Shown here in pieces: positions 14,688 to 29,280 of a stretch of DNA of 29,281 bases. Made by a program: the position numbers and the translations under genes. The first letter of the stretch is position 1. Every line of letters begins with the position of its first letter. The notes beneath the pieces are model-generated. The model was not told the origin of the DNA. It worked only from the letters and a program-made list of their open reading frames with translations, and did no database searches. The DNA is taken from the sequence record DRR723986_13540; one strand, given 5' to 3'.

Positions 14688-14771
14688 TTAAATATAGACT
14701 GTGAGATGAAGAGCGTAGTCGACTGGTTAGTTTTAGAGATTTAAAACGAGACGGCATCCCGTATTAAAATT
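14688..14771 (+). pseudogene. 84-bp direct repeat, copy 2: orphaned 3' end of a des allele
   Basis: Reads KYRL*DEERSRLVSFRDLKRDGIPY* versus KYRLWDEERSRLVSFRDLKREGIPY*. Confidence 0.9.
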
Positions 14772-14823
14772 GAAAATTCAGTCTCTAAATTGGCTATCAC
14801 AATCAGAATCAGTAGATTTGGAT

Positions 14824-17553
14824 ATGCTCAAATACCTGGGAATATTTTTCGTGTTGATCATCCAAAATGGATACAGTCAGGACTATTTAGACAAGGAAGT
14901 ATATCTAGTTGACTCAATTGATTATGAATTGATTACACCAGAATATAAGCAGCTACTCAATTACTATATCCAATATCATCACGATACGGATGATGAAGTA
15001 TACAAGATCAGCGTGATTCACGAAATTGTTAGGAATTGCTGGGATTTTAATATTTGGCCAAAGTATAATGAGTGGGTGTATAACAAAGCAACTGAAAAGT
15101 TAAGCGAAGATTTATCAGATTCTTTGCGCAACATTTATGGTTTGTTCAAAGCAGGATCAGTTTATTATAGAGGTTGGGGACATTATTACAACACCAATTA
15201 CGATTTGTCAAGAGCCACCTTTGAACAAAGTCGCGATTTATATCTTGAATATGGTGATTCTGCAGGCGCAGCAAGCTCCATTGACAATATAGGCTCAGTC
15301 TACAGCACCCAAGGCGAAATGTCAAAAGCCTTAGAATATCATGTTGAAGGATTAAAAATTAGAGAGCGGCTTCAAGATACTTTGGGCCTTGGAGCATCCT
15401 ATAATGCAATTGGAATCATTCACATGACGCATGGAGATTACAACCGTGCCATTGCTGACTTTGAAAAAGCAATTGGTTTTCATACGCATGTTCAATGGTG
15501 GTCTGGTTTATCGAACGAATACAGTAATCTTGGGGCACTAGAATCAAAACTCGGGCATCATGATGTCGCTTTAGAATATCACCTGGAAAGTTATCGTATT
15601 AAAGAACATCTCGGAGACAAACAAGGCATGGGTATATCATTGACCAACATTGCCAGCATCTCATTGCTTAATGGAGATACCGCCACCGCAATTGAATATC
15701 AAAACTATGCCCTAGAGCTTTCAAAAGAATTGGGTGACAATAGAGGAATTGCAGGCTCACTAAATCAATTGGGGTTTATCCACCTTTTAAAAGATGAGTA
15801 CACAGAAGGATTCGAGCTTTTGAAACAATCTTTAACAATCAGTAACGAAATTGGATCGCAACTTGACAAAAGAAATGCCTTAGTCAGCTTGCTTAAAGGT
15901 TACTTATGGAAAGGAGATTTTAAAGAGGCTGAAAAGTATTTGCAAGAACTTGTGGAGATGAGAAAAAGGGACATTAAAACCAATTTCGCCATTTTATCGG
16001 AACAAGAAAAATCCATGTACTTTAAAACAATGGCTGAAGAGTATGACAATTTATACGCTTATGGCAATTTGACTTATGCTTCTAACCCAGCAATCACGAC
16101 TACCCTTTATGACAATACCCTCATGTTAAAAGGATTGTTGTTGAAATCATCAACTGCAATGCGTGAAGCAATACTTACAAGTAAAGAACCGGATTTAATT
16201 GATCAATATCATGAATGGATAGCCATCAAAGTTCAAATAGCTGATGCCTACGCAAAAGGATTTGATTCAGATAGTCTGGAAAAAGCTGCAAATGTTTTAG
16301 AAGCAAGTCTGGTGAAAAAATCTGCCGCATTTGACGATTTCTATATTGGGGATCCAACATCTTGGGAGGACATTAAAAACAAGCTAGAGAAAAATGAGAC
16401 GGCCATAGAATTCATTCGTTTTCCAAAAGATTTGATGAATGAAGATTCTGAAGTTATTTATGCTGCACTTACCATCCAGGCTGACTCAAAACAACCTAAA
16501 TTAATTCAACTGTGCACAGAAAAAGATCTTGAAAAAGTTCTTGGAAAAATCACATCAACTAGTATCAGTCATGTTAATGAAGTTTATTCAAACAATGCTT
16601 TAACCGAATTGATTTGGAATCCACTCAAAACTGAACTTCAAGGAATGGACAGAGTTTTCTTCTCTCCTGTTGGATTACTTCACAAGATTGCTTTTTCAGC
16701 GATAAGAACTGGTGAAACCGGGCTAGTACGTGATCAGCTAGAATTGGTGCAATTAAACAGTACAGAGCAAATGCTATCTGATAACAAGGTACAAATCAAT
16801 GATAATACCGTTGCCTCTTTATTTGGTGGTGTTAAGTACAATACCGACTCTTCTGAACATGTTATTTGGAATTATTTACCTGGAACATTGGCCGAAATCG
16901 ACTCAATCAAATCAACTATTGATGCTAAAGTAACAGTGAATTATCTCAATGGACTTGACGCGACAGAGGAACGGTTTAAACAGTTAGCAGAGGAAAGCAC
17001 CATACTGCACATTGCATCACATGGCTTCTTTTATCCTGACCCTGAATTGGTTAGACAAGAAACACAAGTAGAGTTGGATCAAGATGAGCTGGCATTTAGA
17101 GGCGGATCATCAAATTATGGGATTTGGAATTTTGTAAACAATGAGAATCCACTAATGCGATCAGGAATTGCTCTGGCTGCTGCAAATGACGCTTGGCAAC
17201 GAAATGCCTTTTCTGAGGGAGAAGATGGTGTATTATCAGCTCAGGAGGTATCCAATCTAAATATGACAACAACAGATCTGGTGGTGTTATCTGCATGTGA
17301 AACAGGATTAGGAGATATTCGTGGATCTGAAGGAGTTTATGGCTTACAACGAGCTTTCAAAATGGCTGGGGTAAACTACTTAATCATGAGTTTATGGCAA
17401 GTACCGGACAAAGAAACTGCCGAATTTATGACCCTATTCTATCAGCATTTGGTTGAAAGTAAGGATGTACGAATTGCCTTTAACAAAACACAATCGGTTT
17501 TGAGCGCACTTTATGAACCGTATTATTGGGCCGCGTTTATCTTGGTTGAGTAA
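14824..17553 (+). CDS. Exported TPR + CHAT (caspase-like) protease; start probably ATG 14824
   Basis: Signal peptide MLKYLGIFFVLIIQNGYSQ; TPRs (NIGSVY..QG...KALEYH); catalytic ILHIASHGFF and VVLSACETGLG; SLWQVPD; PYYWAAF. Confidence 0.92.
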   Translation: MLKYLGIFFVLIIQNGYSQDYLDKEVYLVDSIDYELITPEYKQLLNYYIQYHHDTDDEVYKISVIHEIVRNCWDFNIWPKYNEWVYNKATEKLSEDLSDSLRNIYGLFKAGSVYYRGWGHYYNTNYDLSRATFEQSRDLYLEYGDSAGAASSIDNIGSVYSTQGEMSKALEYHVEGLKIRERLQDTLGLGASYNAIGIIHMTHGDYNRAIADFEKAIGFHTHVQWWSGLSNEYSNLGALESKLGHHDVALEYHLESYRIKEHLGDKQGMGISLTNIASISLLNGDTATAIEYQNYALELSKELGDNRGIAGSLNQLGFIHLLKDEYTEGFELLKQSLTISNEIGSQLDKRNALVSLLKGYLWKGDFKEAEKYLQELVEMRKRDIKTNFAILSEQEKSMYFKTMAEEYDNLYAYGNLTYASNPAITTTLYDNTLMLKGLLLKSSTAMREAILTSKEPDLIDQYHEWIAIKVQIADAYAKGFDSDSLEKAANVLEASLVKKSAAFDDFYIGDPTSWEDIKNKLEKNETAIEFIRFPKDLMNEDSEVIYAALTIQADSKQPKLIQLCTEKDLEKVLGKITSTSISHVNEVYSNNALTELIWNPLKTELQGMDRVFFSPVGLLHKIAFSAIRTGETGLVRDQLELVQLNSTEQMLSDNKVQINDNTVASLFGGVKYNTDSSEHVIWNYLPGTLAEIDSIKSTIDAKVTVNYLNGLDATEERFKQLAEESTILHIASHGFFYPDPELVRQETQVELDQDELAFRGGSSNYGIWNFVNNENPLMRSGIALAAANDAWQRNAFSEGEDGVLSAQEVSNLNMTTTDLVVLSACETGLGDIRGSEGVYGLQRAFKMAGVNYLIMSLWQVPDKETAEFMTLFYQHLVESKDVRIAFNKTQSVLSALYEPYYWAAFILVE

Positions 17554-17559
17554 TCTTTT

Positions 17560-18057
17560 CTAAAGAGCGGCTAAAGCCGCATCATAATCTGGCTCATCAA
17601 CTGTCTCCGAAACTTGCTCAGAGTGAACCACCTTTCCTGTATTATCAATCACTATGATGCATCTAGAATTTAAGCCAGCCAATGGACCATCTAAGATCTC
17701 TAATTGATAATCTTTTCCGAATTGACCTGTTTTAAAGTCAGATAACATGATCACATTTTCTATCCCTTCTGCCCCACAAAATCTATTTTGAGCAAATGGT
17801 AAATCACGAGAGATGCACAAAACTTTTGTCGATCCTATACTTGCCGCTTTTTCGTTGAATTTACGAACTGATGTTGCGCAGGTTCCTGTATCAATACTTG
17901 GAAAAATATTTAAAATCAATTGCTGCCCTTTAAAATCTGAAAGAGTTTTTGTAGACAAATCTGTTGCTACTAATTCAAAGTTTTTAGCCTGTTCACCTGT
18001 CTTTGGAATTTCGCCCAATGTGTTAACAGGGTTTCCTTTTAATGTAATTTTTGCCAT
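17560..18057 (-). CDS. tpx: Thiol peroxidase (atypical 2-Cys peroxiredoxin)
   Basis: LNIFPSIDTGTCATSVRKFN, ISRDLPFAQNRFCGAEG, EPDYDAALAAL. Confidence 0.97.
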   Translation of the reverse strand: MAKITLKGNPVNTLGEIPKTGEQAKNFELVATDLSTKTLSDFKGQQLILNIFPSIDTGTCATSVRKFNEKAASIGSTKVLCISRDLPFAQNRFCGAEGIENVIMLSDFKTGQFGKDYQLEILDGPLAGLNSRCIIVIDNTGKVVHSEQVSETVDEPDYDAALAAL

Positions 18058-18089
18058 AGTTCGATTTTATAGAATCTAAGTTAGTTTTA

Positions 18090-21023
18090 TTAAATGATTA
18101 AGCCGGTACCCCAATTTTTAAACAGTTTTGAGCCTGTATCTCGATATGCTTGTGCCTTGACTTCATCTTTTCTATCCTCGTAAAGATCTGCTAAAAACCA
18201 ATTCGCAATAGCAGCATTTTGATAAAATTCTTGTTCATTAGCATCAGCGATTGCTTTTTTCAAAAAGTCAATTGCGGCCTCTGCATCATTTTTTCTATAA
18301 GCATTTAAACCTTGAAGAATGTACAGTTTATGGAGATAATTCTCAGGACAATAATCTGACCATTTTACGAATTTTTTAATAATCCGATTGATTCCTCCAG
18401 ACCTATTGATGTTGGATTTCTGATTTTTAATTAGCGTTAATCCTTTATAAAAATAATATTCTGTTTGAATGTACAGACCAGTCAGAGATTGAACGATATT
18501 ATCTACATCTGATAGTTTCTCCATGGCATCTTCCCATCTGGATTCTAAACAAGTTCGTTGAAGGTCCAACACGAGATTCACTGACAGTGTAAATTTATAC
18601 TCAGTTTTTTCAAGAATGGATTCTACTTCGTTCTTGACGGTATCTTCTACCTCATTCCCTTGAAGTCGTTTAATGTGATACATGAACATGACTTGAAAAT
18701 CTCTATAATCAATCATTTTTAGATCCTCGCACCAAACTGCATTTTGCATGGCCTGGTTATACACGTCATGTAGATTTTTCCCCACTAATAACAAGGTAAG
18801 TGATTCGTTTACGGTTGGCTCAGAAGCTCCTAAAAAATCACCTTGTTCATAGCCATTTTCAGTGGCAAGTTGATAATATTCTAACGTTGACCTAAGTGGC
18901 ATTTTATATGCTAAATAGATGGCTTTTCCGAAAAAATATCTTGCCGATTGAACATTATATTTATCTGCTAGTCGGCCGCCGATTTCACTATACTCGTAAG
19001 CGGTTTTAAAATTCCCGATTCCAGCACCAGTGATTATTCCGTAAGCCATAAAGCCTGAATATGATTCGGGATTAATCCCTTTTTTCAAAGTAATTTGCAT
19101 CAATTTCAGTGCTAAAACTCCGTTGAGTTCAGGATTCAAGTAATAAGCTGAACGGAACATCCATAAGATAACACTACAGGTAATTTCTGCTTCAGGATCT
19201 GACATTTTAGGCAAATTATAAATATCATCAAATGATTTATTGCCCAACATCAGTTTGGTTCGAGCCAGCTCTTTTACAACCGTGAGTTTATTTGCTTTAT
19301 CAGAAACATTTATTCCTAGTTGCTGTAAAGCCAAAATTCCATTACTCAAGGCGGCAGATAATTCACCAAACTGTGTGTCTAGCATAATTTTGGCCAACCT
19401 CAGTTTGATTTGATCAGCTTTATTACAACGTGCTAAACCTTGAGCATATAACTTATTGGCCAGTGATTCAACATTACACAATCTGGCGATTTGATACCCT
19501 TCAATTCGAATGGTCGCCGCTAGATGATATGCTGTTGACCAGTTATGATGCATATTGCTATCAAGGGCCTGGTGCAAATACCCCAAGGCCAGATCGAAGG
19601 ACGCGGATAATTTAGCCTTTTGAACAGCCTGTAAATTCACTTCTGCATGCTGTATTTTCAATTCAAAAGGACTGTCATCAGTAATGCATTCATTTAAGTG
19701 ATAAGCGCAGTCGAAAACGTATTTATAGTTTAAACCCAATGCAGAATTGCTTAAATAATAATCAGCAATTTTATAATGCAATTTAGATCTTAACTTTTCG
19801 CTCATAGAATCATGCACAGTTTCCTGTACCAAATCATGCTTAAATTTATAGTTTGTTAAATCAGATAAATCTTTCGAATCCTCTAATTGCATAGGAAGTA
19901 GGAAGCCGTTATCTACGGCTACTCGGTAGCTATTCTGCAAATCTTCTTTACTTTCACCAATAATTTGCGCAATGAATGGCACATTAAATTCAGACCCAAA
20001 ACATGCACCAATTTGAATATTGAGCCTATCTTTTTCGCTCATTTGCTCAAGCTTGTTTCGCAACATTCTTGGCATTACATCTTCAATTGAAACGTCAATA
20101 TTTTCGAAATCACCCCATGACCAGGAATTCGTTTTATCCAAATAAACTATCTCATTTGCCCTACTTAATTTGCGTAAATATTCATTGAGAATGTAAGGGT
20201 TTCCCTCACATTTTGAGTACAGAATATCTTCTAATCGCTCAAAGTCTGAATTAGAATTTTTAAACAATTCTTTTAATAAAGCACTGACTTCCTTTTTAGG
20301 TAATCCGGTAAGGACCACCTTAATTTCTTCTATGGTTGAATCAATCGAGAGCCCATTAAAATGATCACTCGGTCTATTAGAAATCACTACCAATAATCCA
20401 TTTAATCGCTTTTCAATTAGTAAACGAATAATTTCTAGCGAATCCTTATCAGCCCATTGTAAATCATCTATATGTAATACAACATTGTGCTCTACCTTTT
20501 CAACTAAAAACGCAATGAAATTTAAAACAGTCCGGTTGAACTTATTTCTGAGTGATACCGGCGAAACTGTTTCGTTTCCTAATTGTGGATTAACTTGAAT
20601 GGTTTCAAGTAATGAGGGGATGAATCGGTGAATTTCTGTCAGTTGGGACTCAAACTTTTCTAAAAAATCATTTTTCCATTCTGTCTGGTTGCTTCCAGAC
20701 AGGGTAAATTGAAAATTCACTAATCCCTCGCAAATTTGACGCAATCCTAAGTAAGGTACCCCTTGTTTAAATTGCTCATACTTCCCCGTATAAAACTGGA
20801 AATCCTTATATTTTTTAAAAAACGACCTAGCGAAATACGATTTCCCTATTCCAGCTGGACCTTCGAATCGCACTAATAAATTCTCTCCAGAAATCGCCTT
20901 TTCAACAGTTTCATGCAGTATTTCCTGCTCCTGTTCTCTACCGTAAATGCGATTTGGAAAGAGCAATTCTGGATTTCCAGTTGGAGCACCTTTGTATTGT
21001 GATATTGTAGATATTTCTTCCAT
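18090..21023 (-). CDS. STAND-class (AAA_16-like) ATPase with helical/TPR-like sensor region; lacks kinase and output domains
   Basis: IYGREQE, Walker A GPAGIGKS, GKYEQFKQGVPY, Walker B HIDDLQWAD, EGNPY, YKFKHDLVQE, CPENYLHK, terminal WG. Confidence 0.85.
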   Translation of the reverse strand: MEEISTISQYKGAPTGNPELLFPNRIYGREQEQEILHETVEKAISGENLLVRFEGPAGIGKSYFARSFFKKYKDFQFYTGKYEQFKQGVPYLGLRQICEGLVNFQFTLSGSNQTEWKNDFLEKFESQLTEIHRFIPSLLETIQVNPQLGNETVSPVSLRNKFNRTVLNFIAFLVEKVEHNVVLHIDDLQWADKDSLEIIRLLIEKRLNGLLVVISNRPSDHFNGLSIDSTIEEIKVVLTGLPKKEVSALLKELFKNSNSDFERLEDILYSKCEGNPYILNEYLRKLSRANEIVYLDKTNSWSWGDFENIDVSIEDVMPRMLRNKLEQMSEKDRLNIQIGACFGSEFNVPFIAQIIGESKEDLQNSYRVAVDNGFLLPMQLEDSKDLSDLTNYKFKHDLVQETVHDSMSEKLRSKLHYKIADYYLSNSALGLNYKYVFDCAYHLNECITDDSPFELKIQHAEVNLQAVQKAKLSASFDLALGYLHQALDSNMHHNWSTAYHLAATIRIEGYQIARLCNVESLANKLYAQGLARCNKADQIKLRLAKIMLDTQFGELSAALSNGILALQQLGINVSDKANKLTVVKELARTKLMLGNKSFDDIYNLPKMSDPEAEITCSVILWMFRSAYYLNPELNGVLALKLMQITLKKGINPESYSGFMAYGIITGAGIGNFKTAYEYSEIGGRLADKYNVQSARYFFGKAIYLAYKMPLRSTLEYYQLATENGYEQGDFLGASEPTVNESLTLLLVGKNLHDVYNQAMQNAVWCEDLKMIDYRDFQVMFMYHIKRLQGNEVEDTVKNEVESILEKTEYKFTLSVNLVLDLQRTCLESRWEDAMEKLSDVDNIVQSLTGLYIQTEYYFYKGLTLIKNQKSNINRSGGINRIIKKFVKWSDYCPENYLHKLYILQGLNAYRKNDAEAAIDFLKKAIADANEQEFYQNAAIANWFLADLYEDRKDEVKAQAYRDTGSKLFKNWGTGLII

Positions 21024-21721
21024 TAATTATTAAATCCTTCAGGTGCAGGGCCTGCAACCCATGATTTTCCTTGCCTAGAATATAATAGATAAAGATAGAT
21101 TATATCTAGAAAAAATACGACTCCTCCAATAATGTGAACAAATGAATTAGGTGGGTCGAAACTAAAATAAACAATTGTATAAGCGAGTGTTCCCAAGCAT
21201 TTACACCACCCCATTATTTTAGAGAATTTTTTGAATCTAAATTGTCTTAAAAACAAAGAAATAAACAATAAAGAGATCACCACATTTGAGATGTAAGCTG
21301 ATTGACTCCCCCATTTATGGTCAAATCCAGATGCAATAAAAGAGGAATAAAGAGAAGCAAATATCCCAATTCCTATTAAACAAATTGGAATGAAATATTG
21401 TTTAATCTCAGGTATTTCAATTTGTTTTCTTCCGTACTTAAAGAGTCCAATAAGTATAAAAATATCAAGAAGAAACCATGCTCGATAACTCCAAATGAAC
21501 AATTCTCCTAGATTTATGGAATCATAAAATAAAAACCCCCAAACAAATTCCCAGGCAATATTTCCCAACACACAAATCCAAGGCATTTCGACATATTTGT
21601 CCTTCACAATAGACCTTATTATTAGGGCATAAAGCGTTATCCAAAATAGCCATCCAATTGCCGTTACCGTTAGTTCGTAAGGCGTAAATTGCTCTAAGTT
21701 TATCCAATAGTTTGATGCCAT
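21023..21721 (-). CDS. Pyr4/PaxB-like integral membrane terpene cyclase homologue
   Basis: 232 aa, about 7 TM segments; W...Y...I.R, MP..C...NIAWEF, WFLLD, W.CKCLGT and C-terminal FLDIIY motifs. Confidence 0.72.
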   Translation of the reverse strand: MASNYWINLEQFTPYELTVTAIGWLFWITLYALIIRSIVKDKYVEMPWICVLGNIAWEFVWGFLFYDSINLGELFIWSYRAWFLLDIFILIGLFKYGRKQIEIPEIKQYFIPICLIGIGIFASLYSSFIASGFDHKWGSQSAYISNVVISLLFISLFLRQFRFKKFSKIMGWCKCLGTLAYTIVYFSFDPPNSFVHIIGGVVFFLDIIYLYLLYSRQGKSWVAGPAPEGFNN

Positions 21722-21724
21722 AAG

Positions 21725-22876
21725 TTAATCTTCTAAATTCCAGTCTCTTCTTAAACTAGGTGGAATGTAAAACTTCACCTTTTTATCATTATTAAAATGG
21801 TTGAGCATGTGTTGCAAAAGATATTTTTTCACGTGCTCAGCTATTTTTTCAATCACCTTGTGCGATTCCGTAAATTCATCCACCGAATCAAACACAACTC
21901 CAACCAATTTTGGAATCATTTTATCAAATAAATTCAAATGGGAATCTAAATGTAGGATTTCAGCAATTTGATCACCAATCATATGACGGATTATTGCTTC
22001 GGGAGCCGCATCAAACAGATGTCCTGGCATCATATCCGCCATAAACTTGCATACTGCTTGCGTTAATTCGGTTCCTTCTTTTGAAGGTTCCATTTGATTC
22101 TTTAAAATAGATTCACCGAGATGCAATCCATCTTGGAATTTTTCAGGGTTCAATTCGTCTTTAAGGCCCATAATGTGCCCTATAACTCTCCAAGAATGAT
22201 AATACCCTTGTTTTTCTTCATCTGAAAGTTGAATATTTAAAACTTCAAGACCTTGAATGGTAAGAGAAGAGAAAGATTGTAAAGTTCCTGCTAAATCTTG
22301 TTGATTGATTGGTGCTCCATAAACTTCTTCTTGCCAATGGTGTTTTCTTAAATAATATCTTATTGCAGCATGAATCAACCTAACTTTTTGAGCCGTTTCA
22401 ATTCCCTTACCTTTTGGCTCCAAACCTCCTTCGCTATTCACATTAATTACAAACTGTGCCGTTTCCATTAATCGTCTGGTAAATACTTTTAACGAACCGT
22501 TCTGTTCAGTTAACCTACCTGTTGCATAAAGCACTTTTGCACCGTTGGCACACGCATATGCTTCTGGTAAAGATTTGGTGAGTAAACAAAGAGATATCTC
22601 TGGGCCATATTGTGAAAAGACTTTTTGACCAATTCTAACTTGATTCACATCAATCCAATCAGGCAATTTCGCCGATTCTTGAAAATAATTTTTCACAACC
22701 TCAGGAAAATCAATTTCTGAAATTTCATCATTTTCTCTCAACTGAGAAAACAGTTGATTTATGCCTTCAGTATTACCTGAAGAAATAATATCAGCAACAA
22801 CCTGATCGGCTAACGGATCAGACTCATGTCTTACTGAATTGAATTCTTCAGGGGTCCAATTTTTTAAAGTGGGCAT
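21725..22876 (-). CDS. Lcp/MpaB-like (DUF2236) haem oxygenase family protein, no signal peptide
   Basis: DPLAD, LPDWID, SLPEAYA, VLYATGRL, RRLMETAQF, KVRLIHAAIRYYL, GAPINQQDLAGT, WRVIGHIMG. Confidence 0.88.
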   Translation of the reverse strand: MPTLKNWTPEEFNSVRHESDPLADQVVADIISSGNTEGINQLFSQLRENDEISEIDFPEVVKNYFQESAKLPDWIDVNQVRIGQKVFSQYGPEISLCLLTKSLPEAYACANGAKVLYATGRLTEQNGSLKVFTRRLMETAQFVINVNSEGGLEPKGKGIETAQKVRLIHAAIRYYLRKHHWQEEVYGAPINQQDLAGTLQSFSSLTIQGLEVLNIQLSDEEKQGYYHSWRVIGHIMGLKDELNPEKFQDGLHLGESILKNQMEPSKEGTELTQAVCKFMADMMPGHLFDAAPEAIIRHMIGDQIAEILHLDSHLNLFDKMIPKLVGVVFDSVDEFTESHKVIEKIAEHVKKYLLQHMLNHFNNDKKVKFYIPPSLRRDWNLED

Positions 22877-23049
22877 TTCTTAGGGTTTACACTGCTTAAT
22901 ATAGCTATTTTATTTTGTGACATCCCGTATTTGAAACTAAAAATCTCGCTGTTGAATATTAAATTACTGACATTCAGCGCATCAAAATAAGTCATGATTA
23001 AAGTAGGATGGAATAATTTTTAGCTTTACATTTAGTCTAAAATCAAGTT

Positions 23050-23568
23050 ATGAAAACAATCTGTATTCTGTTAACCGGATTCATTTCAATGACTGCTTTT
23101 GCAGATTCTGGAAAATTGAAGACCTATACATCTAATGATTGGGATTACTGGGAAATCAATTTAGGGGGTGTATCAGGAAAGATTAAAACTTACACCTCAG
23201 AGGACTGGGACAGCTGGGAATATTCATTCAATGGCTCATCTGGAAGAATTAAAACCTATTCTTCAAATGATTGGGACTACTGGGAGATTGGTAGTTTAAA
23301 ACTCAAAACTTACAGTTCAAATGATTGGGATTATTGGGAGGTATCTGGTGGTACAAATATGAAAATTAAAACTTATACATCTGAAGATTGGGATTACTGG
23401 GAAGTTTCAGGCGCCGCAAGTGCGAAAATCAAAACGTATACTTCAGAAGATTGGGATTATTGGGAAGTAAGTGGGAGTTTTTCTTCGTTAAGCACGGAAG
23501 CTAAAATGGCTATGGTTTTCGTTCCAATTTTCACCAGCGCAATTCACGTTAGAAATATCAATAAATAA
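23050..23568 (+). CDS. Exported protein built from six K(I/L)KTY(T/S)S(N/E)DWDxWE repeats
   Basis: Signal peptide ending AFA; six repeats visible in the translation; hydrophobic C-terminal helix. Confidence 0.85.
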   Translation: MKTICILLTGFISMTAFADSGKLKTYTSNDWDYWEINLGGVSGKIKTYTSEDWDSWEYSFNGSSGRIKTYSSNDWDYWEIGSLKLKTYSSNDWDYWEVSGGTNMKIKTYTSEDWDYWEVSGAASAKIKTYTSEDWDYWEVSGSFSSLSTEAKMAMVFVPIFTSAIHVRNINK

Positions 23569-23858
23569 TGGTTTTTATATATAGAGGCGCTGGATTGATG
23601 GTGCCAATAATCTTATTCATTAGTTGTTGGATTGTCAGTTACTGGTTTGAAGACACGCGATTAGGCAATCCGGATTATATGGGATGGTCAATGTTTTGGG
23701 CGGGAATTCCAATATTAATCGTTGGAGGTTTATTGGCCGCTTCAAATTTAGAAGATGCTGAAACAGGAGAAAAGCCTGAAAAAACCTATTGTGATTTATT
23801 TTTTATCCCTGCTTGGATTTGGGGGTTATTCTTTATCATTTTCGGTTTATATCTTTAA
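23568..23858 (+). CDS. Small multi-pass membrane protein, translationally coupled to the repeat protein
   Basis: TAATG overlap; three hydrophobic segments. Confidence 0.65.
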   Translation: MVFIYRGAGLMVPIILFISCWIVSYWFEDTRLGNPDYMGWSMFWAGIPILIVGGLLAASNLEDAETGEKPEKTYCDLFFIPAWIWGLFFIIFGLYL

Positions 23859-23859
23859 A

Positions 23860-24285
23860 TTAGCCTGCTGCCAACTCTGAACGATTTGCCAGCCAGCGAA
23901 ACGCTTCTTCATCAGAATTAACCAGCTTTAACTGGAAAGGTGAAGAATCATAAGCCTTCATATATTTCACCATAAGTTTGGCCATCCAACTGCTGTTTTT
24001 AACTGCCATCATGCGAATGTGAGGGCCGAGTTCATTATTTAAAAATTCTCGTTGTTCTCTATTTAAGATTACGCCTAGCGAATTATCCAGGTAGAATTCC
24101 ACTTTATTACTCTGAATGAGATCTTTAATTATTTCAAACGAATCTCTTAATTTTTGAATACTTGGAACAGTATTTTTCGCTCTTGCAATCAATAAGGTAT
24201 CTCTGATTTTAAGAGAATACATTTCTGTTTCGATCATGATTACCCCTGTGTACTTGTGGACAATCATTTTATTTATCACGGTCAT
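23860..24285 (-). CDS. Hypothetical protein, possibly SpoIIAA/STAS-like fold
   Basis: FYLD...LNREQREF...MAV...P.FQLKLVNSDEEAFRWL pattern. Confidence 0.55.
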   Translation of the reverse strand: MTVINKMIVHKYTGVIMIETEMYSLKIRDTLLIARAKNTVPSIQKLRDSFEIIKDLIQSNKVEFYLDNSLGVILNREQREFLNNELGPHIRMMAVKNSSWMAKLMVKYMKAYDSSPFQLKLVNSDEEAFRWLANRSELAAG

Positions 24286-24434: not shown

Positions 24435-24707
24435 TTAGTGTATTTTGGCTGTCAAACCTCTTTCGTTAAGCGCTTGTCTCATTGGTCTTAACTTTTTAAA
24501 TTCTCCTTCTTTGACTGCACATTTACCATTATAATGAACTATCCAAGTACACTGTTCAGCCTGGATGGTTTCGTGCTTACATACCTTGATTAAGGCATCT
24601 ATCACCGTATCAAAAGTGTTGACATCATCATTATACAATATCAAGCTTCTACTTTTCTCTGTATCGGTTTTATGATCTACCTTCTCTAATACTTCAGTTT
24701 CAGTCAT
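24435..24707 (-). CDS. clpS: ATP-dependent Clp protease adaptor ClpS (start probably ATG 24707)
   Basis: LILYNDDVNTFDTVI...HETIQAEQCTWIVHYNGKCAVKEG. Confidence 0.95.
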   Translation of the reverse strand: MTETEVLEKVDHKTDTEKSRSLILYNDDVNTFDTVIDALIKVCKHETIQAEQCTWIVHYNGKCAVKEGEFKKLRPMRQALNERGLTAKIH

Positions 24708-24717
24708 AACCCTCAAT

Positions 24718-27700
24718 TTAATCAATTCCTAATACTTTTTTTGCCTTATCAAGACTCATTGGATCGTATTTATGGAAAGCCTTTATTTCTGCATCCACAA
24801 AACCTTCACCTATTAATCTAGCCTTAATTGCTTCGGCTTCTTCGTAAGAATACGTGTTTTCTGAGAAGAAAATCAACTCTTCATCAAAAGTTTCTTCTCG
24901 TAAAATATTTTCTTCAGGGTTTTCAAACAATAATGCAGTAAACTCTGCCGGAATTTCTTTATAGAATCTTCCTACCTCGACATGGAAATATATTGCGTCT
25001 TTGTTATATAAATAGGGATCCGCATCCACTCCTTCATGGTGCTCGTACTTCGTTAATTTCCCAATAGGTTCCCCATTCGCAATTTTTTCGGCTTGTAACA
25101 TAGGAATTGCATCATATTGATAGTAAGATACAATCTCCATATCTTCAAAACCTAACTCACCAAACTCTCTCAGTTTTTCTTCAATATCATCTAATGATTT
25201 CAATTTAGTTGATAGCAAGTAAGTAGTTCCTTCAACATCCTCTTCCGTTTCTAAAAGGTCTTCTGTTTGTAAAAGGATTGTTGCGTATTCACCAGGAATT
25301 TCTTCTTTGTATCTACCCATTAAAACTCTATAGTAAACGCCATCTGCAAAATACTCTTCTTCATTCTCAACAACTTCTTCTTTTTTCAGAGAAACCACCT
25401 CAGCATCTTTGAAACCTTTTGATTTCAATTCCTCCATTCTGTCTTCAGCTCCAGCTTTCGACTCATAGGTTCCTACAAAGTACAATACATTATCTTCAAT
25501 ATCTGAAACTGAAAGAATCCCTTCGTTTTGATTGTTTAATAGCAAGTCAGTAAACTCTACTGGCACTCTTCCATTAAAGTATCCTAAATTAATTCTATAA
25601 GGAGGGCCATTATCCCCATCAGCCTGATCAGAAAGTAATCCTTTATCTTCTTGATTGTCTGTTGTATCAACATTCGTGGTATCCGTATTTGTGGTGTCTA
25701 CATTTGTAGTATCAGTATTTGTGGTATCTGTATTCGTTGTATCCACAGTTGTGGTATCAGTATTATCATTGTTTGCACTGTTATCTGAGTTTGCAAAATT
25801 TGCATCTTTATTTGAAGCAGAATTAAACAATACATCTTCACCAAATTGCGACAATAACTCATTTGCTTCAGCAATTGTAATACGCTCTCCATTAAAGTAA
25901 GCCGTTACAAATGCATCTTGTACTCCTATTTGTACAGTTTCATTTTTTCGAGTTGTCGCTGCAGGCACACTGGTGTACATACCTGTAGAATATCTGATAT
26001 TTCCGTTCGGTAATTTTTGGCTATTTAATGGCTGAATATTAAACAGAACTGCTGGTCTTACTGGTTTGGTGTAAACCCCAATTTGCACGGTAAAGAATAG
26101 TCCCTTTACAATTTCAACTTGATTTGCCTCAGCTGCACCTGGTACATTTGTGTAGTAAGAAACCAAATTCTCTTCTTGTTCATTGTTAGGTTGGATAGTT
26201 CCACCATTATTGTCGTTAGTTCCGTTATTATCCGTTGTATTGTTGTTCGTAGTGTTATTGTCAGTTGTGTTATTATTTGTTCCGTTATTGTCAGTAGTAT
26301 TGTTATTAGTACCGTTATTATCAGTGGTATTATTGGCTCCGTTGTTATCAGTGGAATTGTTATTGGTGCCATTATTGTTGGTACCGTTATTCGTAAAGTT
26401 TTCATCTGTTACGGTTCCTTCACACTCAATTCTGCCCGCTTCTATTTCTCTTGCTTCGCTGATGGTAATTCTTTCTCCATTACAGTAGGCAACAACGAAG
26501 GCATCTCCATAACCAATTCCCCTGATTTGACCTCTTGCATCATTGGCAGTAGCTTCTTTAGTGAAATAACCAGCCATATAACGCGTCACACCGTTTCCTA
26601 ATTTTTGACCCGATACCGGTGCAAACTCTTTGAAATAATCTTGTGGCAATGGTTTTCTAAAAGCTCCCACTTGCACTTTATATACTAATCCGCTTGTTTT
26701 TTGATCAATCGGAATTTGTTTATCATCACCATAAATTGGATCATCAGTTCGTCTGAAAATATCTGTAGCTAGGACCGTTGGAGCAACGTAATCAGCCGCA
26801 AGTGAATCTTGATTTTGGAATGATTTTTCTCTTGGATCAACATTGTTATCTGCCAAGGCAATCATATCATCCTTTACTTTATCTCCAGCTCTATCTAATA
26901 CGTCATTGGCTTTCTTTAAATCTTGAACCGCCTCATCTTTCAATGATTTCTGAAGCGCTCTTAACGAATCAATTTTTGCTTGATCAGCTTGCACTCCAGG
27001 ATCTTCAGCAACCACTTTATCCACAGCACCACCATCCTGATAACTTACTACAGCGGCTTTTATTTTACGTTTTTGACTGCTTTTGATTTCTTCAATTTGA
27101 TCTTCAATATCATTGGCTTTTTTGAGATTCTCATTGGCAGATTTATTGGCTTCGTAAAATTCTTTATACTCATCTGAAGTTGCAATTTCTTCGGTTGTTT
27201 CATTATCTGGGTTAGATGCCGATTTATTAATTGTTACTGCAACAATTTCATCTTCTTGCTCTTTAATTTTACCGGCATCAGAGCGAATATCATTTGCTTC
27301 AACTCTTAGATCCTCGGCCTTTTTATCCAACTCATCTGCTTCAACAAGTATAGCTTCTTTGTACTTCTTTTTAACCGTATTAGCGCTGTCTCTTAATTCA
27401 TTGGCACGGTCAGTCAAACCATTGGCTTGAATATCCAAGTTATCTGCCTCTTTCAACATTTTAGTTGATTCTCTATCTTCTACATTCTCCGGCACCTCAA
27501 CAATTACTTTCTCTTGATTCTTATTGAAGTTATCTACCACTCTAGCAGTTTTGAACACTCTGTTTGCTTGTTCGGTTAAGTTTTTCGCCTCATTTTCTTT
27601 ATCTAAAGCCTCCGTTAAAATTTCATTTGATTTAATTGGATCTTTTTCTTTAGCCGCCTCATCTCTCAATTCATCAGCTTCAACCATTAGCACTTCTGCT

Positions 27701-29280
27701 TGCTTTAGTTTACGATTTGCCTCTTGAACTTCTTCGTCTTCAGGGTTATTGGCAGAAGCAATCACCTGATCAATTTGGCTGTCTTCTTTATCAGCTTGAT
27801 ACTCGGCATCATTGGCAATGGCCAAATCAGTAATTACTTGATTTTCAACTTTTGCAAGTTTTAATTTCCGCTTATCAATTTGCCCTTGAATTTTAGCTTT
27901 GTCTTTATCGTTATCTGCATTCGCTAATTGATTTTCGAGGTCAGCAATTTCAGTTTTTAGCTTTTGAATTTCTGTTAGGTTGCCAGCATTATCACTTAGA
28001 ACTTCTTTTGCTGCATCTGTTCCGAAATCATTTTCGTTTAAATCTTCAACTGACTTGTTATTACTAGAAAGGTCAGAGCTGCCTAAGTTTGCAAGACGCT
28101 CATTGTTCTCTGCAATTTCATTTCTTTTTAATTCTTTAAGCTCTTCTAACTTGTCTAATTCTTCAGTGATTACCTCTCCTAGTTCATCATTCTCTTCCCA
28201 CTCTTCTTGAAGGTCAGAGATTTTATTATCAATGGCCTTAATTAACTTCTCATGCAATTCATTCTCACCTTCTAATTTCGTTTTTTCGTCAATGGTTTCA
28301 TCTGATTGCAAAGCGGCCATATCCGATTCATAGTTTGGCATCAATGATCCAATTGTGATTTCAGGTCGGTTAGATCCTGAACTTGCTGCCAATAATTCTT
28401 CAGACTTTTGAATTTTATCTTGCGTATCAGACTTGATATTATTCAAGCTTTCAATTCGCTTATCAATTTTTTCAGAGGCTTCAGGGTTAGAAGATTTAAG
28501 TTGCTGTAACTGTTGAATTTCATTATCAATTTTAGATATCAATCGTTTATTCAAATTGATTTTATTTTGCTCTTTAGTGGCATCATCTTGCAATGCGATA
28601 TTGATGTTATCTAATTCATTAGCGTACTCAGGGAATACTTGTGCAATTGTTGCAGTCTCATCAATATCTAGAGGATCAACATTAGTGGTGTCTGGACCAG
28701 TTGTGTCGCCAGCATTTTGAACAAATTGTTCAGAAGTCAAGATTTCATTTTGCTTGGCAGTTCTGATGTTGCGCATTCCAGTTATCCTTTTTTCTATTTG
28801 GTCGGCTTTATCAGGATTTTCGCTTTTCAAATTGTTCAAACGATCAATTTCACTATCTACCTTCGCTATCAAACGCTTGTTCAAAGCAATCTTATCCTTT
28901 TCTTTTTGAACGGCATCATTACCGCTATTATTAATTGCCGCTAATTCATCTTCGTATTCAGGATAGATATCCTCAACTGCAACAATTTCACTTAAATCTT
29001 TTGGATCAACATTTGATGCTTCTACAGTTCCTCCTTGCTGCTCAATTAAGTCTTCTGATTTCGAAATTTTATTTTCAATATCCGTTCTAATTTTTCGGAT
29101 GTTTGAGATGCGTTTTTCAATTTTATCAGCAGCATCTGGATGGCTAGACTTTAACGATTCCAATCGGCTGATTTCTGAATCGATTTTTTGTAGCGCACTT
29201 TTGTTCACATTGATTTTCGCCTTTTCTCTTTCTACAATATCCGTTGTGCTGCCTTCAATGCTTGATATTTCATTTTCATA
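24718..29280 (-). CDS. Giant acidic coiled-coil protein with SPOR-like domains (5'-truncated, >1500 aa)
   Basis: Frame is open beyond 29208 to the window edge; ~100-aa helical repeats; YKVQVGAF...GYGDAFVVAY and FTVQIGVY...GVQDAFVTAY domains plus three degenerate C-terminal copies. Confidence 0.85.
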   Translation of the reverse strand, partial: YENEISSIEGSTTDIVEREKAKINVNKSALQKIDSEISRLESLKSSHPDAADKIEKRISNIRKIRTDIENKISKSEDLIEQQGGTVEASNVDPKDLSEIVAVEDIYPEYEDELAAINNSGNDAVQKEKDKIALNKRLIAKVDSEIDRLNNLKSENPDKADQIEKRITGMRNIRTAKQNEILTSEQFVQNAGDTTGPDTTNVDPLDIDETATIAQVFPEYANELDNINIALQDDATKEQNKINLNKRLISKIDNEIQQLQQLKSSNPEASEKIDKRIESLNNIKSDTQDKIQKSEELLAASSGSNRPEITIGSLMPNYESDMAALQSDETIDEKTKLEGENELHEKLIKAIDNKISDLQEEWEENDELGEVITEELDKLEELKELKRNEIAENNERLANLGSSDLSSNNKSVEDLNENDFGTDAAKEVLSDNAGNLTEIQKLKTEIADLENQLANADNDKDKAKIQGQIDKRKLKLAKVENQVITDLAIANDAEYQADKEDSQIDQVIASANNPEDEEVQEANRKLKQAEVLMVEADELRDEAAKEKDPIKSNEILTEALDKENEAKNLTEQANRVFKTARVVDNFNKNQEKVIVEVPENVEDRESTKMLKEADNLDIQANGLTDRANELRDSANTVKKKYKEAILVEADELDKKAEDLRVEANDIRSDAGKIKEQEDEIVAVTINKSASNPDNETTEEIATSDEYKEFYEANKSANENLKKANDIEDQIEEIKSSQKRKIKAAVVSYQDGGAVDKVVAEDPGVQADQAKIDSLRALQKSLKDEAVQDLKKANDVLDRAGDKVKDDMIALADNNVDPREKSFQNQDSLAADYVAPTVLATDIFRRTDDPIYGDDKQIPIDQKTSGLVYKVQVGAFRKPLPQDYFKEFAPVSGQKLGNGVTRYMAGYFTKEATANDARGQIRGIGYGDAFVVAYCNGERITISEAREIEAGRIECEGTVTDENFTNNGTNNNGTNNNSTDNNGANNTTDNNGTNNNTTDNNGTNNNTTDNNTTNNNTTDNNGTNDNNGGTIQPNNEQEENLVSYYTNVPGAAEANQVEIVKGLFFTVQIGVYTKPVRPAVLFNIQPLNSQKLPNGNIRYSTGMYTSVPAATTRKNETVQIGVQDAFVTAYFNGERITIAEANELLSQFGEDVLFNSASNKDANFANSDNSANNDNTDTTTVDTTNTDTTNTDTTNVDTTNTDTTNVDTTDNQEDKGLLSDQADGDNGPPYRINLGYFNGRVPVEFTDLLLNNQNEGILSVSDIEDNVLYFVGTYESKAGAEDRMEELKSKGFKDAEVVSLKKEEVVENEEEYFADGVYYRVLMGRYKEEIPGEYATILLQTEDLLETEEDVEGTTYLLSTKLKSLDDIEEKLREFGELGFEDMEIVSYYQYDAIPMLQAEKIANGEPIGKLTKYEHHEGVDADPYLYNKDAIYFHVEVGRFYKEIPAEFTALLFENPEENILREETFDEELIFFSENTYSYEEAEAIKARLIGEGFVDAEIKAFHKYDPMSLDKAKKVLGID
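25657..25758 (-). repeat. Coding 15-bp tandem repeat encoding (DTTNx) x7
   Basis: DTTTV DTTNT DTTNT DTTNV DTTNT DTTNV DTTD. Confidence 0.9.
26203..26395 (-). repeat. Coding low-complexity Asn/Thr/Gly repeat (NNTTDNNGTN-like units)
   Basis: TNNGTNNNGTNNNSTDNNGANNTTDNNGTNNNTTDNNGT...; synonymous variation between units. Confidence 0.9.

Follow-up and report, generated by a model that had tools for sequence, protein, structure and literature searches.

Within the 29,281-nt stretch of DNA analysed here (sequence record DRR723986_13540, hereafter the window), three minus-strand genes at 18090-22876 lie head to tail in the 5′→3′ order oxygenase, cyclase, STAND. They encode an Lcp/MpaB-family haem oxygenase-like protein, a Pyr4-like protein with seven predicted transmembrane (TM) helices, here called the 7-TM protein or, after its family, the cyclase, and a STAND ATPase lacking a recognisable effector domain (coordinates in Table 1). 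Surveyed across phyla, the conserved unit consists of an isoprenoid-type oxidoreductase, a Pyr4-like 7-TM protein and an interchangeable signal transducer, of which the window carries the effector-less STAND variant. We put the probability at about 0.5 that this operon is a signalling input module in which an isoprenoid-type lipid would be oxidised, taken up by the 7-TM protein and read by the transducer.

The gene junctions can be read directly in the sequence: the oxygenase and cyclase genes are joined as TAA-CTT-ATG, with a 3-bp spacer, and the cyclase and STAND genes overlap by 1 bp in TAATG. The original prediction started from this arrangement and had named beforehand, among the findings on which it could fail, absence of the trio from other genomes. 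The trio does recur, so the arrangement is not due to chance. The cyclase gene is present in 6 of 41 related genomes and the trio is syntenic in four (G001, G006, G013 and G003) of the five that were examined. Trio proteins of G001, the nearest genome, are ~99% identical to those of the window; in G006, G013 and G003 the oxygenase is 56-70% and the cyclase 71-76% identical, the STAND just 31-46%. A more distant version is found in G014, where an oxygenase-cyclase pair (35% and 39% identical to that of the window) is followed by a 201-aa multi-TM (6TM) protein, a HisKA_2 histidine kinase and a receiver-only response regulator.

Profile scanning of species-level genomes returned 80 loci in Bacteroidota, Acidobacteriota, Gemmatimonadota, Fibrobacterota, Chloroflexota and single others, 79 of them with a cyclase open reading frame (ORF; our custom ORF caller gave none at L072). 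Neighbours were labelled using our own ORF caller, phmmer/HMM searches and Pfam scans of representatives and pooled sets; alignments A4 and A5 exclude L013, which stems from the organism of the window, and L092, which shares a contig with L091, and both count towards the 79-locus tallies. An oxidoreductase lies within ±3 genes of the cyclase in 72 of 79 loci, being a PF09995 oxygenase in 52 and a ~580-aa PF01593 flavoprotein in 20, with neither in the remaining 7. Amino_oxidase matches were obtained for 20 of 23 unlabelled upstream genes, and the best NCBIfam likenesses of the flavoprotein are HpnE, zeta-carotene desaturase and phytoene desaturase, all far below cut-offs. A signalling partner is found within the same distance in at least 60 of 79 loci (55 by labels and five by Pfam: L025, L028, L046, L047 and L089). 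One upstream gene among L052, L066 and L077 also has a protein-kinase domain, a pooled result that does not resolve the locus. Under the same labelling, signalling genes occupy 42 of 69 positions at +1 and 19 of 58 at +2, falling to 3 of 415 more than three genes away, and 38 of the 42 cyclase-to-signalling junctions measure ≤20 bp, 28 of them overlapping. Only signalling proteins, PF09995 and PF01593 form neighbour clusters with at least five members within ±3 genes.

That isoprenoid-acting enzymes and a STAND would together form a signalling module was the core of the original prediction. Coupling of the cyclase-like gene to an isoprenoid-type oxidoreductase and to signalling proteins across phyla supports part of it, and the STAND proved to be not the defining partner but one of several interchangeable transducers, next to 6TM-histidine kinases, PP2C phosphatases, nucleotidyl cyclases and 7TMR-DISM receptors. 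STANDs are the partner at 16 loci by labels plus two by Pfam (L025 and L089); other partner types are 6TM-HisKA kinases (9 loci), 6TM-HisKA_2 kinases (8), 6TM-SpoIIE phosphatases (9), 6TM-nucleotidyl cyclases (3), 7TMR-DISM-SpoIIE proteins (3) and 7TMR-DISM hybrid kinases (2), the 6TM output labels being based on one Pfam-scanned representative per sequence cluster and a pooled tally. The HisKA_2 partner kinases are most similar to the stress kinase PhyK.

As a separate observation, 33 of 56 same-strand +1 proteins share a homologous N-terminal domain of ~190 aa with 5-6 TM helices. It is common to histidine kinases, SpoIIE phosphatases and nucleotidyl cyclases encoded at +1 in loci of the L019-L092 and L093-L172 ranges (e.g., L064:1775-3208, L040:9947-11305 and L074:10641-11906), has weak Pfam matches only (MASE7, DUF6057) and may be an undescribed membrane sensor domain. 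Kinship of this 6TM domain with the cyclase was considered and dropped, no cyclase ORF matching the 6TM profile.

Scanning metagenomes gave 80 further loci, 77 with a cyclase ORF (none at L143, L157 and L161), and these reproduce the genome-set pattern. Here, 59 of 77 loci have an oxidoreductase within ±3 genes (37 Lcp-like and 22 flavoprotein), and a signalling partner was recognised in 38 of 77 loci overall and in 19 of 29 among those with at least two genes on both sides. Signalling genes fill 30 of 59 positions at +1 vs 8 of 95 more than three genes away. Large Pkinase-STAND-cyclase proteins (L160-L169) are further partners of the flavoprotein.

Coupling extends to gene fusion. Exhaustive profile searching of 1.84 billion representatives returned 1369 relatives of the 7-TM protein at E up to 1e-3, a number that includes biosynthetic relatives and falls to 871 at 1e-10 and to 176 at 1e-30, and among the best 150 of those 1369 there are ten long forms (623-921 aa), all with the cyclase-like domain at the N-terminus. 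Six of the ten join it to a signalling output: HisKA-HATPase_c in three, and GGDEF-EAL, Guanylate_cyc and PAS-REC in one each. The others carry a full Lcp-like oxygenase domain (one form, E 1.5e-100 to a custom profile), a TonB-dependent receptor domain (two, P0039 and P0171) or no other Pfam domain (one). N54, W57, E58, D86 and D206 (window numbering) are kept in 10/10 long forms. No match to the 6TM profile was found in the fused forms, nor any predicted TM segment past approximately residue 250, except one at 372 in P0147. Such 7-TM-output fusions suggest that the membrane protein may itself be the receptor and not only an upstream enzyme.

Seven long forms (P0064, P0107, P0147, P0083, P0087, P0105 and P0076) share a conserved soluble linker of ~250 aa between the 7-TM domain and varied signalling outputs, unnamed in Pfam, in which N273, F276, W280, W304, E319, G320, G330 and R375 are invariant (~residues 232-520 of P0064, alignment A7). 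Fused forms are rare (1-2 members per 90% cluster). Given that the linker-bearing proteins are just 24-36% identical to P0064, the architecture looks conserved rather than a gene-calling artefact. Artefacts could account for the oxygenase fusion and for both fusions to TonB receptors, the latter because an inner-membrane 7-TM protein joined to an outer-membrane barrel is implausible. No linker match was obtained in the window or in the genome-set loci, and the idea that the linker is a divergent Lcp domain was abandoned, as neither hmmsearch nor hhalign gave any similarity. One source calls P0076 a PAS-domain protein, and at L093:6782-8647 the linker domain occurs in a separate kinase gene after an oxygenase-cyclase pair.

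All three family assignments of the original prediction lie above Pfam cut-offs. For the oxygenase, the match is to PF09995 (MPAB_Lcp_cat; E 1.5e-21, 77.9 bits, cut-off 23), Lcp K30 (5O1L/5O1M) is hit by sequence at E 1e-19, and the AlphaFold2 (AF2) model (pLDDT 88.2) aligns with the same structures over its full length (Foldseek E 4e-12, TM-score 0.73-0.77, 365-380 columns), in agreement with the Lcp fold of a globin core capped by helices at both termini, with t-anethole oxygenase (8S1J) as second-best structural match. The motif RLIHAAIR, singled out earlier as retaining the haem His, contains H169, which aligns with His198, the proximal haem ligand of Lcp K30 (PMC5522427). According to the same source, Arg164 and Thr168 are crucial in the Lcp K30 active site and Arg195 and Arg202 have a structural role (PMC5522427); they align with R135, T139, R166 and R173 of the window protein, respectively. 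H169, R135, R166 and R173 are invariant in 47/47 oxygenase homologues from cyclase-linked loci, and T139 is found in 35 of them, the other 12 having Val.

Lcp works extracellularly (PMC5522427). The N-terminus of the window oxygenase is not signal-peptide-like as judged by eye (no dedicated predictor), and no TM segment was predicted in oxygenase homologues occupying the same slot. Having no evident signal peptide, the oxygenase should therefore act inside the cell, unlike Lcp, and on the same ground it was ruled out as a rubber-degrading enzyme; from its sequence we take it to be a cytoplasmic protein with putative haem binding and putative C=C cleavage.

Family membership of the 7-TM protein is given by PF25129 (Pyr4-TMTC; E 1.4e-16, 61.4 bits, cut-off 27, profile positions 21-185 of 227). 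Its AF2 model (pLDDT 95.1, pTM 0.90) consists of seven long helices, oriented N-out/C-in by the positive-inside rule. The Glu of the WE motif and the C-terminal Asp that had been noted as apparently present are E58 (motif W57-E58) and D206, both near-invariant: among 83 cyclase homologues, W57 is kept in 83, E58 in 82, D86 in 82, D134 in 83 and D206 in 81. E58, D86 and D206 lie within predicted TM helices and D134 in a short outer loop. The Pfam match of the window protein ends at profile position 185; those of relatives P0039 and P0076 reach 219-220. We take E58 to be the equivalent of Glu63 in the Glu63/Asp218 numbering of Pyr4, an assumption that a look-up in print did not confirm. An acidic residue acts as Brønsted acid in Pyr4-like cyclases (PMC13307353).

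No Protein Data Bank chain was matched by the family profile at E up to 10. The solved folds nearest to the model are the KDEL receptor (Z 13.1 over 181 residues), SWEET transporters (Z 11.4, 11.3) and cystinosin (Z 9.5, 8.7), all ahead of unrelated soluble bundles, which score no higher than Z 8.3; Foldseek alone returned E 0.018 at best. Among its 12 top-ranked entries, our literature search found no mention of a likeness between Pyr4 and the KDEL receptor, SWEET or cystinosin. Complex prediction for oxygenase and cyclase (score 0.00, mark 0.34) carries no weight either way. Tandem cyclase-like paralogues occur in L031, L039, L050, L054, L055, L068, L107, L112, L113 and L130, their copies sitting in different deep clades of a quick tree (e.g., L055_1 and L055_2), which suggests an old duplication of the gene and perhaps heteromers.

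The third protein matches PF13191 (AAA_16; E 1.6e-19, 71.5 bits, cut-off 32.6), and Walker A residues G55, G58, G60 and K61 together with D192 are invariant in 10 STAND homologues, D186 being kept in at least 90%. Its C-terminal half is less well placed: TPR_CHK1 scores 25 bits, below the cut-off of 27, and the Atlas lists unnamed clusters first, TPR families appearing only at scores of 0.90 and below. The NCBIfam kinase/cyclase fusion family TIGR03903 matches residues 26-426 only, i.e., the ATPase part. The description of this STAND as output-less is accurate, since its ORF begins at the first start codon following an upstream stop and neither Pfam nor NCBIfam detected an HTH, kinase, cyclase or other effector domain in it.

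Effector domains are present in 6 of 7 other STAND homologues scanned with Pfam, which are encoded beside the cyclase in other phyla: Pkinase-AAA_16 in L017; Pkinase-AAA_16 with C-terminal GAF and Guanylate_cyc in L018 and L055; zinc ribbon-Guanylate_cyc-AAA_16-TPR in L021 and L059; and Pkinase-Guanylate_cyc-AAA_16-TPR in L050. The seventh, L063 (988 aa), is effector-less like that of the window. In a quick IQ-TREE of 85 cyclase sequences, the window clade (5 rows, support 100) joins the L017/L018 clade at support 93, and a second effector-less clade (L056, L063 and L073) groups with L055 and L068. The output-less condition is therefore a derived state within signalling STANDs. Going by its sequence, the window protein is a signalling STAND of the MalT/PknK type, MalT and PknK being what we take to be the fitting comparators; TPR_MalT Pfam matches were seen in relatives.

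How such a module could work may be outlined as follows. The Lcp-like protein, soluble and cytoplasmic, would use O2 to oxidise a C=C bond of an isoprenoid-type membrane lipid. The 7-TM protein would take the oxidised lipid into a cavity lined by the membrane-buried acids E58, D86 and D206 and protonate it, probably cyclising it, and the adjacent transducer would respond either to the product or to the 7-TM protein in its liganded state. Most lineages have as transducer a membrane-bound kinase, phosphatase or cyclase that carries a 6-TM input domain of its own; in the window, the soluble AAA_16-TPR STAND, presumably having lost the kinase/cyclase effectors of its relatives, would oligomerise in an ATP-dependent manner onto a putative partner. 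Candidate cues are O2, oxidative state or lipid damage. What the data show is the coupling of the genes, their family membership, conserved residues of catalytic type and repeated association with signalling proteins, fusions among them; substrate, chemistry, direction of information flow and STAND output are all putative in this scheme. Both alternative oxidoreductase partners come from isoprenoid-acting families (Lcp-like, and HpnE/desaturase-like, the latter below cut-offs). Enzymes are more likely input than regulated output, because transcription factors are not among the transducers and the 7-TM domain is able to occupy the input position of signalling proteins.

Several observations weigh against the signalling-module reading. 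The STAND of the window has no recognisable output. In the oxygenase, Lys167 of Lcp K30 is replaced by Glu (E138) and the base Glu148 aligns with Asn, in a low-confidence stretch; Lys167 is a distal ligand conserved in just 59% of Lcps (PMC5522427), so that this mismatch bears on likeness to Lcp K30 and not on family membership. No signalling neighbour was recognised at 19 of the 79 loci from genomes and at 39 of the 77 from metagenomes, many of them cut contigs, and the signalling labels were seeded partly from proteins of the module itself, which favours detection near it. No recurring prenyltransferase or polyprenyl synthase was found within ±3 genes of the 79 loci. One acidobacterial-type clade is ordered cyclase, oxygenase, 1-Cys peroxiredoxin, with no transducer. 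The fold of the 7-TM protein resembles those of receptors and transporters, and the globin fold of Lcp resembles that of globin-coupled sensors (PMC5522427), making a pure haem-sensor role possible. Finally, G014 (99% complete) has the module with no SQS_PSY or squalene-hopene-cyclase match.

This last case bears on the substrate. Carotenoid and squalene were among the substrates proposed at first, and as a universal substrate both had to be rejected on account of G014; its module speaks for a lipid of wider occurrence, such as a quinone or polyprenol, or else for a substrate that is not an isoprenoid. The host genus of the window does have SQS_PSY and squalene-hopene/oxidosqualene-cyclase-type genes. 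In G003:C1:679506-690321 and G006:C10:405438-416151, a squalene/phytoene-synthase-family gene is found ~10 kb from a ~760-aa squalene-hopene/oxidosqualene-cyclase-family gene, a pair that may belong to a hopanoid or sterol cluster.

The main rival holds that the trio is a sensor complex producing no metabolite, in which the Lcp-like protein would be a haem sensor of O2, NO or redox state, the flavoprotein a redox sensor and the 7-TM protein a receptor or anchor whose acids bind a ligand or proton. We consider this unlikely, even though a good deal speaks for it. Lcp adopts a 3/3 globin fold and changes between 5- and 6-coordinate states (PMC5522427), two unrelated redox-cofactor proteins fill the same slot, biosynthetic neighbours do not recur, and the 7-TM protein, with its KDEL receptor, SWEET and cystinosin-like fold, is fused to histidine kinase, GGDEF-EAL, cyclase and PAS-REC outputs in proteins that contain no further TM sensor domain. 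Against a purely sensory oxygenase stand its Lcp catalytic residues (R135 in 47/47 homologues and T139 in 35/47), the enzymes that are its best structural matches and the isoprenoid-acting families from which both alternative partners come. A word-based search gave no longer (fused) oxygenase homologues and so none joined to a signalling domain, which is weak evidence, given that word-based searching missed the cyclase fusions found by the exhaustive search and its blanks are thus uninformative.

Less probable still is a regulated metabolic pathway, in which the enzymes would synthesise or break down an isoprenoid, for instance an apocarotenoid, a quinone derivative or a terpenoid taken up from outside, and be the output of signalling proteins that only control them. 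Both families are indeed known from biosynthesis or catabolism (PMC13307353), the cyclase-oxygenase-peroxiredoxin clade dispenses with a transducer, and TonB-dependent receptor genes adjoin the cyclase-like gene repeatedly (L039:4398-6890, L117, L126 and L138), which, with the two apparent fusions, hints at substrate import. However, the outputs are receiver-only regulators, PP2C phosphatases, cyclic nucleotide (cNMP) cyclases, GGDEF-EAL proteins and kinases rather than transcription factors, the position of the 7-TM domain N-terminal to outputs is that of an input domain, and genes that would supply precursors do not recur.

An anti-phage or conflict system, with the STAND as NLR-like sensor and the enzymes as membrane-damaging effectors, is very improbable: STAND NTPases are common in defence, a CHAT-TPR protein is encoded nearby and the module is patchy among the 41 related genomes, but the proteins of the trio gave no hit in PADLOC-DB 2.0 at E up to 0.01, the closest STAND relatives carry Pkinase, Guanylate_cyc and GAF rather than nuclease, protease or TIR domains, most lineages pair the module with a two-component or PP2C signalling protein, and no mobile-element or defence-island genes were found among flanking ORFs scanned (14770-24285), leaving the NLR-like and defence parts of the original prediction with no support.

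Returning to the signalling input module, an oxidative-stress cue is hinted at by peroxiredoxin neighbours and by outputs of PhyK-like and PP2C type, which we regard as a lead only. The peroxiredoxin clade comprises L099, L101, L102, L104, L105, L108, L109 and L151 (8/77 among selected genes); further peroxiredoxin ORFs, dropped by the gene picker, lie in two metagenome loci and, three of them, in the genome set (L030, L038, L045, L121 and L129). The baseline more than three positions away is 4/415 in genomes and 0/95 in metagenomes. With the Tpx-type thiol peroxidase of the window, this clade, itself unrelated to that of the window, raises a possible link to peroxide or lipid-hydroperoxide chemistry. 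The tpx gene starts 32 bp downstream of the STAND gene on the same strand and is possibly a fourth, weakly linked operon gene; its adjacency was seen in the window and the near-identical G001 only and not in L014-L016, for which reason tpx was set aside as a system member and kept as a lead.

Among ORFs family-scanned across 14770-24285, no prenyltransferase or epoxidase was found, as originally stated. The intergenic stretch upstream of the oxygenase gene contains a sigma-70-like site, a weak match as promoter/terminator scanning gave 30 sites vs 22.4 expected from shuffles, near chance; Bacteroidota promoters lie outside the scope of the scan. Contigs of metatranscriptome run X3 cover parts of the oxygenase, STAND and tpx genes; contigs cannot demonstrate a transcript, no listed piece spans a gene junction, the cyclase interior is uncovered and no co-transcription is deduced. 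The three genes beyond the intergenic stretch (172-aa, 96-aa and DUF7793-like proteins) also adjoin the oxygenase gene in G006 (78%, 73% and 37% identity, respectively). In Kapaibacterium loci L091 and L092, TPR/CHAT-like proteins follow the module, a label that may rest on TPR repeats alone.

Table 1. Features of the operon and its surroundings in the window (positions as numbered in the whole 29,281-nt stretch).
Feature	Position	Strand	Remarks
Lcp/MpaB-family haem oxygenase-like protein, 383 aa	21725..22876	minus	PF09995 match
Oxygenase-cyclase spacer, 3 bp	21722..21724		TAA-CTT-ATG
Pyr4-like 7-TM protein, 232 aa	21023..21721	minus	PF25129 match
Cyclase-STAND overlap, 1 bp	21023		TAATG
Effector-less signalling STAND (by sequence), 977 aa	18090..21023	minus	AAA_16 match; long helical, putatively TPR-type region C-terminal
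Tpx-type thiol peroxidase (tpx)	17560..18057	minus	Redoxin E 5.1e-32
Intergenic stretch upstream of oxygenase gene, 173 bp	22877..23049	minus	Likely promoter region
Sigma-70-like site	22935..22907	minus	9/12 consensus
172-aa protein	23050..23568		Built of KIKTYTSEDWDYWE-type repeats; divergent from operon
96-aa membrane protein	23568..23858		Divergent from operon
DUF7793-like protein	23860..24285	opposite strand	
TPR-CHAT protein, 927 aa	14770..17553	plus	CHAT E 7e-54; convergent with tpx
1496-aa ORF	24718..29208	minus	Long acidic coiled-coil-like stretches, Asn/Thr-rich low-complexity repeats (by appearance)
ClpS-sized ORF	24435..24725		Follows the 1496-aa ORF; name from the look of the sequence alone

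To our knowledge, the roles so far known for Pyr4-type cyclases and Lcp/MpaB oxygenases are biosynthetic or degradative only; in the loci surveyed here, both families appear to stand at the conserved input end of signalling pathways in bacteria, with nearly every kind of signalling output occurring beside or fused to the 7-TM domain. Our literature search (DUF2236 with terpene cyclase, histidine kinase, Lcp or MpaB; terpene cyclase with signalling) found no description of the module. The parts belong to known families, and the system, along with a terpene-cyclase-family domain as signalling input, appears undescribed. In a 2026 survey of bacterial Pyr4-like cyclases, 264 of 1107 candidates were kept, those with terpenoid genes nearby (PMC13307353), so loci like that of the window were probably filtered out.

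Tentatively, and with less confidence than in the module itself, we propose that Pyr4-like 7-TM proteins outside biosynthetic clusters form a new class of bacterial membrane receptors, possibly "catalytic receptors", which together with a dedicated haem or flavin oxidoreductase would turn oxidation of a common membrane isoprenoid into a signal. Such a lipid-based pathway for sensing O2 or oxidative stress would feed outputs of the two-component, PP2C partner-switching, cNMP, c-di-GMP, Ser/Thr-kinase and STAND kinds in phyla that include Bacteroidota, Acidobacteriota, Gemmatimonadota and Fibrobacterota. If true, this would add a new sensor-domain family, would give the oxidation of isoprenoid lipids a new part in the physiology of bacteria, and would explain most of the bacterial Pyr4-like genes set aside by natural-product mining for want of terpenoid neighbours. 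Natural adenylate cyclase or histidine kinase fusions could be used as reporters for the ligand.

Compared with known systems, the oxygenase shares PF09995, the full-length Lcp fold, the haem His and equivalents of Arg164, Thr168, Arg195 and Arg202 with the group of Lcp K30, fungal MpaB and MpaB′, and t-anethole oxygenase. Lcp K30 is secreted and has Lys167, whereas the window protein is predicted to be intracellular with Glu in that place, and its gene accompanies a 7-TM protein and a transducer, not catabolic genes. With signalling STANDs and TIGR03903 proteins, the window STAND has in common AAA_16 with intact Walker motifs and a long helical, putatively TPR-type region, and it has none of the effectors of relatives at the same genomic position, which are built as Pkinase-AAA_16-TPR(-GAF-cyclase). 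As for cyclases of the Pyr4/XiaH/TylF type (PF25129), the 7-TM protein is like them in family, in compact size (~230 aa) and in seven predicted TM helices, and its near-invariant WE Glu, with the near-invariant late Asp as a candidate second acid, fits the Brønsted-acid mechanism of the family (PMC13307353). Unlike terpenoid clusters, the 7-TM loci have no recurring prenyltransferase, polyprenyl synthase, P450 or epoxidase, and unlike Pyr4-type cyclases the 7-TM protein is coupled, rarely fused, to signal-transduction proteins.

In Myxococcus, lipid-mediated signalling of photo-oxidative stress proceeds through CarF, plasmalogen, singlet oxygen and CarR. The protein families are unrelated to those described here, and by analogy only, the concept of membrane-lipid oxidation state as a stress signal would be shared. 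Closer in architecture are 7TMR-DISM and MASE sensor modules, which likewise place a multi-TM domain N-terminal to kinase, GGDEF-EAL and cyclase outputs, 7TMR-DISM receptors even filling the transducer slot in some of our loci, and globin-coupled sensors, with which the module shares a putative haem/globin-fold partner (PMC5522427). Unlike all of these, the module takes its input domain from the terpene cyclase family and has a dedicated oxidoreductase gene.

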